Assembly: GCA_012813795.1 (NCBI GenBank)
Contig: GCA_012813795.1_4087.1
Origin: a phage
Strand: one strand, 5' to 3'
DNA: 64,000 nt
Made by a program: the position numbers and the translations under genes. Below the pieces are notes generated by a model. The model did no database searches, was not told the origin of the DNA, and was given only the letters and a program-made list of their open reading frames with translations. Positions 20,973-21,063 of this stretch are shown here, in pieces; position 1 is the stretch's first letter; each line of letters begins with the position of its first letter.

Positions 20973-21063
20973 CGAAAGAGGTGGGATTTGAACCCACGAA
21001 GCGTTATTTCTAACACTTGCTCGCTTAGTAGGCGAGTGCAATCAACCGCTCTGCCACCCTTCC
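20973..21063 (-). tRNA. type II tRNA, Ser-like, apparent anticodon ACU
   Basis: 91 nt; aligns by memory to tRNA-Ser (D-arm GCAGAGCGGTTGATTGC, long variable arm, T-arm GTGGG-TTCAAAT-CCCAC); loop CUACUAA puts A at position 34. Confidence 0.6.

Follow-up and report, generated by a model that had tools for sequence, protein, structure and literature searches.

A phage serine tRNA with a wobble adenosine as a probable dedicated decoder of AGU

The stretch of DNA considered here, hereafter the window, is a 64-kb (64,000-nucleotide) phage contig (GCA_012813795.1_4087.1 of NCBI GenBank assembly GCA_012813795.1), and the gene of interest is a 91-nt type II serine transfer RNA (tRNA) with the anticodon ACU, tRNA-Ser(ACU), that occupies positions 20973–21063 of the minus strand and is supported by ARAGORN, Rfam, its predicted fold and its conservation. 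An earlier reading of this DNA from its letters alone (the sequence-only reading) had left the strand unstated and had proposed a type II serine architecture, an anticodon loop CUACUAA that puts adenosine in the wobble position (34), and AGU as the codon read. In the 64-kb window, ARAGORN called a Ser(act) gene at 20972–21063 on the minus strand, and independently the covariance model RF00005 (Rfam/Infernal) matched 20973–21063 on the same strand along its entire length (model positions 1–71 of 71) with 49.9 bits (E = 1e-7), well above the gathering score of 29 bits. The anticodon can be followed in the raw sequence (A34 at 21029, C35 at 21028, U36 at 21027), the Infernal alignment gives the loop as C-U-A-C-U-A-A, and no other anticodon register was offered by ARAGORN or by Rfam/Infernal, so that architecture, loop and cognate codon all hold as proposed.

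The ViennaRNA fold is a cloverleaf (−29.7 kcal/mol, z = −1.97) with a 7-bp acceptor stem containing G:U pairs at 2–71 and 6–67, a 4-bp D stem (G10–C25, C11–G24, A12–U23 and G13–U22 in the Infernal alignment), a 5-bp anticodon stem (CUCGC/GCGAG), a normal T arm with a 5-bp stem, and the long variable arm of a type II tRNA, in which a 22-nt variable region forms an 8-bp stem capped by a GAAA loop. Both G73 and C11–G24 are identity elements of tRNA-Ser, the type II tRNAs for leucine and tyrosine carrying A73 instead, and both are present here (G73 at position 20973). C35 and U36 of the anticodon, for their part, belong to the identity elements for arginine. The acceptor pairs typical of serine tRNAs (G1–C72, G2–C71 and A3–U70) are represented by G1–C72 and A3–U70, with G:U at 2–71. 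No CCA is encoded, G73 being followed by CAAAUUUC and then by the start of tRNA-Met; the neighbouring tRNA-Met, tRNA-Asn and tRNA-Ser(UGA) all encode it.

ARAGORN and the Rfam tRNA model agree on a set of five minus-strand tRNA genes for the window, which includes every companion that the sequence-only reading had named. Directly downstream of tRNA-Ser(ACU), across an 8-nt spacer (20965–20972) that is kept in seven of eight relatives, lies tRNA-Met(CAU) with its encoded CCA (20890–20964), followed in the same orientation by tRNA-Asn(GUU) (20725–20799); tRNA-Thr(UGU) (19131–19204) belongs to the same loose cluster, and tRNA-Ser(UGA) (23171–23260) is the second serine tRNA of the phage. A weak sixth tRNA-like element at 23088–23166 (minus strand), 7 nt downstream of tRNA-Ser(UGA), scores 32.6 bits against the Rfam gathering score of 29 with sensitive filters only and is not called by ARAGORN; it is the positional counterpart of gene 124 of phage 121Q, annotated as tRNA-Leu(taa), and may be degenerate or atypical. 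Upstream of tRNA-Ser(ACU), a sigma-70-type block (TTGACT, 17 nt, TATAAT, with the TG of an extended −10) at 21074–21102 on the minus strand matches the consensus at 11 of 12 positions, is the best such site in the region, and ends 10 nt before the 5′ end of the tRNA; from the −35 hexamer onward it is conserved in the alignment of relatives both with and without the gene that precedes it here, and is probably a promoter. That preceding gene (21124–21648, minus strand), directly upstream of the promoter-like block and the tRNA at a distance of 60 nt, encodes a NUMOD4/HNH homing endonuclease (Pfam NUMOD4 42.7 bits, HNH_3 25 bits).

The tRNA region matches jumbo coliphages of Asteriusvirus (121Q, PBECO4, Sharanji, JP4 and others) at ∼88–94 per cent identity with many rearrangements, and by this sequence match the window is 64 kb of the ∼350-kb genome of a 121Q/PBECO4-like Asteriusvirus phage. 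The 91-nt gene is 100 per cent identical in 18 phage records, has already been annotated as 'tRNA-Ser(act)' in the GenBank records of 121Q (gene 131) and G17, and is also listed in a supplementary table to a survey of viral tRNAs published in 2019 (PMC6409571). The genome papers on Sharanji, JP4, EJP2 and CBB count tRNAs without discussing this one, and a search of the literature under Ser-ACU and Ser-ACT spellings found no discussion of a phage tRNA-Ser(ACU). The gene itself is thus already catalogued; neither its significance nor a wider class of such tRNAs has been described before.

In an alignment of the window with eight relatives (nine genomes), 0 of the 91 tRNA columns vary. The flanks in the same alignment do differ: the HNH open reading frame (ORF) is 88–99 per cent identical where present and missing from three genomes, the downstream ORF is 93–97 per cent identical, and the adjacent tRNA-Met is a different allele in G17 and JNE01, so that tRNA-Ser(ACU) has remained unchanged in a mosaic neighbourhood. 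The tRNA-Met/tRNA-Asn pair beside the serine gene exists as two quite different allelic cassettes (for example, L023, G17, 1600–1766; L025, JNE01, 1601–1767; L002, E9.1, 2362–2518) that are shuffled independently of whether the serine gene is of the ACU or the GCU type. Phage EJP2 carries a second, diverged allele of tRNA-Ser(ACU) whose 5′ half and entire 17-nt anticodon arm are the same as in the window and which differs in the variable arm, the T arm and the 3′ strand of the acceptor. Its acceptor stem is kept by compensatory changes (G1–C72 to A1–U72 and G7–C66 to U7–A66), with G2–C71 at the second pair, and it encodes CCA and has an A:C mismatch in the T stem.

Cross-tabulation of the BLAST lists for tRNA-Ser(ACU) and tRNA-Ser(GCU) over the 35 distinct Asteriusvirus genomes that match the region shows that every one carries at least one serine tRNA of the AGY type (that is, for AGU or AGC): ACU only in 13, GCU only in 17 and both in 5. 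The gene order is gp130-like ORF, Ser(GCU), Met in E9.1; ORF, Ser(GCU), HNH, Ser(ACU), Met in JP4, Turkey3 and WPEC3; ORF, Ser(ACU), Met in 121Q, G17 and JNE01; and ORF, HNH, Ser(ACU), Met, with no GCU gene, in the window and UE-S1. Judged by this gene order, tRNA-Ser(ACU) is an alternative occupant of the slot taken by tRNA-Ser(GCU) in sister phages. The window contains no tRNA-Ser(GCU) anywhere in its 64 kb, and a sensitive Rfam scan of the tRNA cluster detected no remnant of one. Two simple origins were considered and rejected. A G34A mutant of the clade's own tRNA-Ser(GCU) is inconsistent with the differing D arm and anticodon stem and with the identity of 65 per cent that remains once the loop is removed (the corresponding figure for the window's own tRNA-Ser(UGA) is 73 per cent), and recent capture from the Escherichia coli host is inconsistent with the lack of any blastn match in 5,426 E. 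coli genomes.

Codon demand was compared between the 92 ORFs of the window (17,165 codons) and a host sample of 42 annotated E. coli K-12 genes (14,790 codons). AGU occurs 335 times in the window (19.5 per 1000 codons) and, at 31 per cent of serine codons, is the most used of them; in the K-12 sample it occurs 80 times (5.4 per 1000; 11 per cent of serine). AGC shows the reverse, with 65 occurrences (6 per cent of serine) in the window and 195 (26 per cent) in the K-12 sample, so that AGU/(AGU+AGC) is 0.84 as against 0.29 and the AGU:AGC ratio is ∼5:1 as against 0.4:1 (odds ratio 12.6, p = 6e-48). AGU therefore has the over-representation relative to the host that distinguishes the cognate codon of a codon-compensating phage tRNA, and the suggestion of codon-usage compensation made by the sequence-only reading gains quantitative support. 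The next serine codons of the window are UCA (30 per cent) and UCU (23 per cent). As tRNA-Ser(ACU) matches AGU and tRNA-Ser(UGA) matches UCA and UCU, the two tRNAs would cover the phage's three main serine codons, provided, for UCU, that U34 of tRNA-Ser(UGA) is modified as in the host. A codon-supply model of the Bailly-Bechet type applies to codon-compensating phage tRNAs.

Type II tRNAs of the Ser(ACU) kind are not peculiar to this clade. A scan of IMG/VR for the pattern CTACTAA, 20–34 nt, GGTTCRAATCC, designed to capture an ACU loop and a T loop with a long variable arm between them, returned at least 120 loci, and among the 120 matches listed 92 contain a type II tRNA-Ser(act) of 83–94 nt by ARAGORN, with 72 distinct sequences (73 with the window gene, in 58 clusters at 90 per cent identity). 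Among those same listed matches the genes sit in tRNA arrays (median 4 tRNAs per fetched stretch), together with tRNA-Ser(UGA) in 20 loci and with tRNA-Ser(GCU) in only 2. In a set of 49 viral Ser(ACU) tRNAs, 23 of the 25 consensus pairs have undergone compensatory double changes. Pairing in the acceptor, D, anticodon and T stems is almost never broken, and G1–C72 and G2–C71 are present in 48/49 and 37/49, respectively; on this covariation the viral Ser(ACU) genes are structurally constrained tRNAs, not debris. Two representative Ser(ACU) sequences from IMG/VR had no match in the phage collection that would point to a cultured carrier outside Asteriusvirus, and L084, considered in the same connection, proved to lack a tRNA. 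Two independent counts suggest that Ser(ACU) makes up a few per cent of phage AGY-type serine tRNAs: loci found with a neutral probe, the Ser(UGA) pattern, hold 29 Ser(gct) and 1 Ser(act) (3.3 per cent, 95 per cent confidence interval 0.1–17 per cent), and the 2019 survey table lists 291 'gct' and 11 'act' entries (∼3.6 per cent), of which at least one 'act' is a doubtful 69-nt call (PMC6409571).

If the tRNA serves AGU, it might be expected to be scarce where AGC is the preferred codon. After dereplication, AGC-preferring contigs number 5/67 among those bearing Ser(ACU) and 33/108 among those bearing Ser(GCU) (Fisher p = 2.7e-4), and contigs with GC above 45 per cent number 6/67 and 29/108 (p = 0.004), p-values that are indicative only because the contigs are phylogenetically non-independent. 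The composition signal lies in this relative absence of ACU from AGC-preferring genomes and not in the medians.

The anticodon stem of the viral Ser(ACU) tRNAs resembles that of tRNA-Ser(UGA) and differs from that of tRNA-Ser(GCU): G30–C40 is found in 65/72 of the ACU set, 136/143 of the UGA set and 6/93 of the GCU set, and U31–A39 in 42/72, 126/143 and 1/93. At a threshold of 90 per cent identity or above, none of the sampled Ser(ACU) tRNAs has a neighbour of the GCU type. With the loop removed, the nearest neighbours of the ACU tRNAs are divided between UGA (37) and GCU (31), whereas control queries find their own class (GCU 51/60, UGA 57/60), so that the ACU tRNAs behave as a separate class. 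A clear derivation from tRNA-Ser(UGA), which the anticodon-stem signature alone favours, was not sustained in view of this division.

Exact searches with the anticodon arm gave no match in metagenomes and, in IMG/VR, only 121Q and two unrelated tRNA-Arg(UCU) genes (L005:51–127 and L006:3422–3495) whose 21-nt anticodon arm equals that of the window except for U34 in place of A34; this identity may reflect a stem preference common to decoders of AGN codons, or coincidence. The same search of GTDB genomes gave 13 matches, about the level of chance, among which 1 is a tRNA, and that one is of class I: a 75-nt gene with an ACU anticodon beside tRNA-Trp in a metagenome-assembled genome of Eubacteriales (JAZQDS010000102.1; L018:2480–2554), whose body is arginine-like, A20 being present in the D loop, and whose anticodon arm is that of the window tRNA. 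Charging with arginine, if it occurs, would make it insert arginine at the serine codon AGU; it could also be a mutant or an assembly error.

The reading that we favour, with a probability of about 0.7, is that tRNA-Ser(ACU) is a functional phage serine tRNA with an unmodified A34, which reads AGU by Watson–Crick pairing and so supplies the phage's commonest serine codon. In the pathway that this implies, host RNA polymerase would transcribe the gene early, starting at its dedicated near-consensus sigma-70 site. With only 8 nt between it and tRNA-Met, tRNA-Ser(ACU) would form part of a precursor shared with that tRNA, and probably with tRNA-Asn as well, from which RNase P and 3′ trimming would release it. 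As no CCA is encoded, it would have to be added after trimming, either by the host enzyme or by a CCA-adding enzyme of the clade itself, for which Sharanji gp419, encoded outside the window and combining a PolyA_pol head (68.8 bits) with RNA-binding domains, is a candidate; the CCA-less tRNA-Ser, tRNA-Pro and tRNA-Ile of T4 are likewise completed by host enzymes. Seryl-tRNA synthetase (SerRS), which does not read anticodons, would then charge the tRNA with serine, and on the ribosome A34 would pair with the third-position U, so that AGU and essentially nothing else would be read. The single tRNA-Ser(GCU) of E. coli reads AGU, a minor codon in the host, only by G:U wobble, and the phage would be adding a dedicated decoder, with a presumed benefit to its own translation.

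Several observations weigh against this account. Because host tRNA-Ser(GCU) already reads AGU, the benefit may be small, and since about half of the clade has the GCU gene only, tRNA-Ser(ACU) is not essential. The median AGU preference of ACU-bearing contigs (0.70) barely differs from that of GCU-bearing contigs (0.67). Part of the perfect identity across the clade could stem from recombination or homing that spread the gene recently, and not from long purifying selection, and G2:U71, where serine tRNAs usually have G2–C71, could weaken recognition by SerRS.

A broader proposition, which we regard as tentative and somewhat doubtful, is that Ser(ACU) is a distinct phage-borne isoacceptor class, neither GCU- nor UGA-type, that AT-rich phages keep as a U-only decoder, and that other viral tRNAs with A34 (Asp-AUC, Tyr-AUA, Phe-AAA, Cys-ACA and His-AUG) follow the same strategy. 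Candidate calls of this kind do occur in the viral arrays of IMG/VR (loci L028–L384), in split boxes as Asp(atc) three times, Tyr(ata) and Phe(aaa) twice each and Cys(aca) and His(atg) once each, and in four-codon boxes as Ser(aga) four times and Thr(agt) and Leu(aag) six times each; those in split boxes are likewise among the types said to be missing universally. If true, such a class would be an exception to the avoidance of A34 in split codon boxes that is held to be universal, and phages would gain either control of translation codon by codon or tRNAs that host defences directed at anticodons fail to recognize.

Among the explanations that compete with AGU supply, the one with most in its favour, though we judge it rather unlikely, is that the phage tRNA insures against the loss of host tRNA-Ser(GCU), replacing it when it is depleted or cleaved in the course of infection, by host shut-off or an anticodon nuclease, with A34 and the different stem making for a poor nuclease substrate. 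The strongest cleavage signals of the anticodon-loop nuclease ApeA fall on proline, threonine, methionine and serine tRNAs (preprint 10.64898/2026.01.26.701840), several serine tRNAs being among its targets, and the cluster in the window holds tRNAs for serine, threonine, methionine and asparagine; in addition, tRNA-Ser(ACU) differs from tRNA-Ser(GCU) in the anticodon stem as well as at position 34. However, a reader of AGU alone would leave AGC, 6 per cent of the window's serine codons, dependent on the host tRNA, and the association with AGU-preferring genomes is predicted by codon supply and not by evasion. Nor was a nuclease specific for tRNA-Ser(GCU) found, and we know of none. Evasion is in any case compatible with the supply of AGU decoding and does not exclude it.

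There is more reason to doubt that the gene is a selfish passenger, a promoter and tRNA unit spread by the linked NUMOD4/HNH endonuclease and conserved through recent drive while benefiting the phage little or not at all, and we consider this improbable. The endonuclease gene lies 60 nt upstream not only in the window but also in WPEC3, UE-S1, JP4 and Turkey3, with a similar ORF (within the same 88–99 per cent identity) in EC.P1; the order Ser(GCU), HNH, Ser(ACU), Met in three genomes is what insertion beside an older gene would produce; and there is precedent for the spread of adjacent tRNA genes by homing endonucleases (T4 SegB is an example cited in PMC6409571). The presence and absence of the HNH gene, and its position between the two serine tRNAs in those three genomes, do suggest that homing-driven turnover shapes the cluster. 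Yet the tRNA and its promoter persist in 121Q, G17 and JNE01 with neither the HNH gene nor tRNA-Ser(GCU), the diverged EJP2 allele retains its anticodon arm intact, and structurally constrained Ser(ACU) genes occur in dozens of unrelated viral lineages. Drive would account for the spread of the gene but not for the upkeep of an intact cloverleaf.

The modification state of A34 bears directly on what the tRNA would decode, because an ICU anticodon would read AGU, AGC and also the arginine codon AGA. The sequence-only reading had allowed that deamination to inosine could extend decoding from AGU to AGY, and this part of its proposal, unlike the A34/AGU assignment, calls for revision; a route through I34, with AGU and AGC read and AGA read weakly, now appears very unlikely. 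The loop CUACUAA is indeed only one residue, at position 36, away from CUACGAA, the loop of the TadA substrate (PMC11066159), but every TadA-dependent site in E. coli has the sequence UACG (PMC13170351), and U36 breaks the U33-A34-C35-G36 motif that TadA needs, so that A34 should stay unmodified. Schmitt, Tittle and Fisk (2024) placed 15 ANN anticodons in a Methanocaldococcus jannaschii tRNA whose loop was otherwise identical to that of tRNA-Arg2 (PMC11066159), from which it follows that their ACU variant has exactly the loop CUACUAA. Inosine was detected only for ACG, AUG and AAG, the ACU tRNA having only A at position 34, and in E. coli the ACU tRNA decoded AGU at 9.4 per cent and AGG at 0.36 per cent, with AGC and AGA below detection (PMC11066159). 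Inosine would also misread AGA, which makes up 20 per cent of the window's arginine codons.

A phage enzyme might supply the activity, as the Sharanji genome paper lists a 'tRNA-specific adenosine deaminase' and several records of the clade carry the same annotation. In Sharanji, the one relative whose annotation was inspected in detail, the protein (gp491; L008:27356–27835) is a dCMP deaminase by its Pfam and NCBIfam scores, with 78 bits to dCMP_cyt_deam_1 (PF00383) and 30 bits to the NCBIfam TadA model against a cutoff of 150, and its identification as TadA was rejected. The identical protein is mostly named dCMP deaminase in the records that hold it, the label 'tadA' being a misannotation in the Sharanji paper and in several GenBank records, with homologues in slurp01 and KP13-7, and it is 100 per cent identical in phages with only the ACU tRNA (Sharanji, SP27 and slurp01) and with only the GCU tRNA (PBECO4, E9.1 and BF17). 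A tblastn search with E. coli TadA found no homologue in the Asteriusvirus records or in the 64-kb window. Taken with the published ACU tRNA, these observations make an unmodified A34 that reads AGU only the most likely state.

That the gene is a decaying serine tRNA with a disabling anticodon mutation, persisting neutrally, might be argued from the reported universal absence of A34 in split boxes (PMC8007984), the G:U pairs at 2–71 and 6–67, the lack of an encoded CCA and the A:C mismatch in EJP2, but is scarcely credible for a sequence with zero substitutions in 91 nt across divergent backgrounds, a dedicated and conserved promoter-like site, a body that is no point mutant of the clade's GCU gene, strong class-wide covariation, and the position of sole AGY-type phage tRNA in 13 genomes.

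In the window as a whole, 91 of the 92 long ORFs share the minus strand with all the tRNAs; the one on the plus strand (11470–12627, 385 aa) has no Pfam hit. The minus-strand genes include a 632-aa C-5 cytosine DNA methyltransferase split by an intein with a Hint domain and a LAGLIDADG endonuclease (32273–34171), a TelA-like (toxic anion resistance) protein (45440–46567), and two type II topoisomerase subunits, one GyrA/ParC-like and one GyrB-like (55957–59382).

Textbooks and reviews regard tRNAs with A34 in split codon boxes, tRNA-Ser(ACU) among them, as absent from all life. Ehrlich et al. (2021) counted every ANN anticodon of a split box among eight tRNA genes that are universally missing, termed them 'prohibited', and stated that phages lack such tRNAs too (PMC8007984). 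The viral Ser(ACU) tRNAs contradict the claim as it concerns phages, and do so with a natural counterexample in phages with E. coli K-12 as a host (MG1655 was the strain used to isolate Sharanji). In vivo decoding by an unmodified wobble adenosine, and the question of why cells avoid a wobble A, thereby become testable in E. coli, whose translation system is the one understood best. Phage tRNA repertoires may explore anticodons that cells leave unused, which is relevant to models of codon adaptation, to annotation pipelines and to the engineering of single-codon decoders.

Among known systems, the closest in setting are the codon-compensating tRNAs of T4, T5 and jumbo phages, which likewise form clusters in lytic phages and match codons that are common in an AT-rich phage and rare in its host. 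The T4-type sets also have homing endonuclease genes alongside, and include tRNAs (Ser, Pro and Ile) that lack CCA as tRNA-Ser(ACU) does. The difference lies at the wobble position, where those tRNAs carry G, U or C, as do essentially all bacterial and phage tRNAs outside tRNA-Arg(ACG); with A instead, tRNA-Ser(ACU) would serve one codon and not two. Compared with tRNA-Ser(GCU), as in E. coli serV or in PBECO4 and E9.1, it shares the type II serine body, U36-A37-A38 and the codon family, and within Asteriusvirus even the genomic slot beside tRNA-Met, but it has A34 and the Ser(UGA)-like G30–C40 where the GCU type has G34 and C30–G40, is 65 per cent identical to the clade gene outside the loop, and is expected to read AGU only. 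With tRNA-Arg(ACG), the single A34 tRNA of most bacteria and the TadA substrate, it shares A34 and C35 within a C32-U33…A37-A38 loop, and it departs at position 36, in its serine body and in lacking A20. The rare A34 exceptions known previously belong to four-codon boxes, in which misreading is harmless, whereas ACU falls in the split Ser/Arg box. The engineered M. jannaschii ACU tRNA has the identical 7-nt anticodon loop, operates in the same host species and provides the only direct decoding data (PMC11066159), but it is an artificial construct with an archaeal tyrosine body and an orthogonal synthetase, whereas tRNA-Ser(ACU) of the phage occurs naturally, has a serine-type body and is maintained by evolution.

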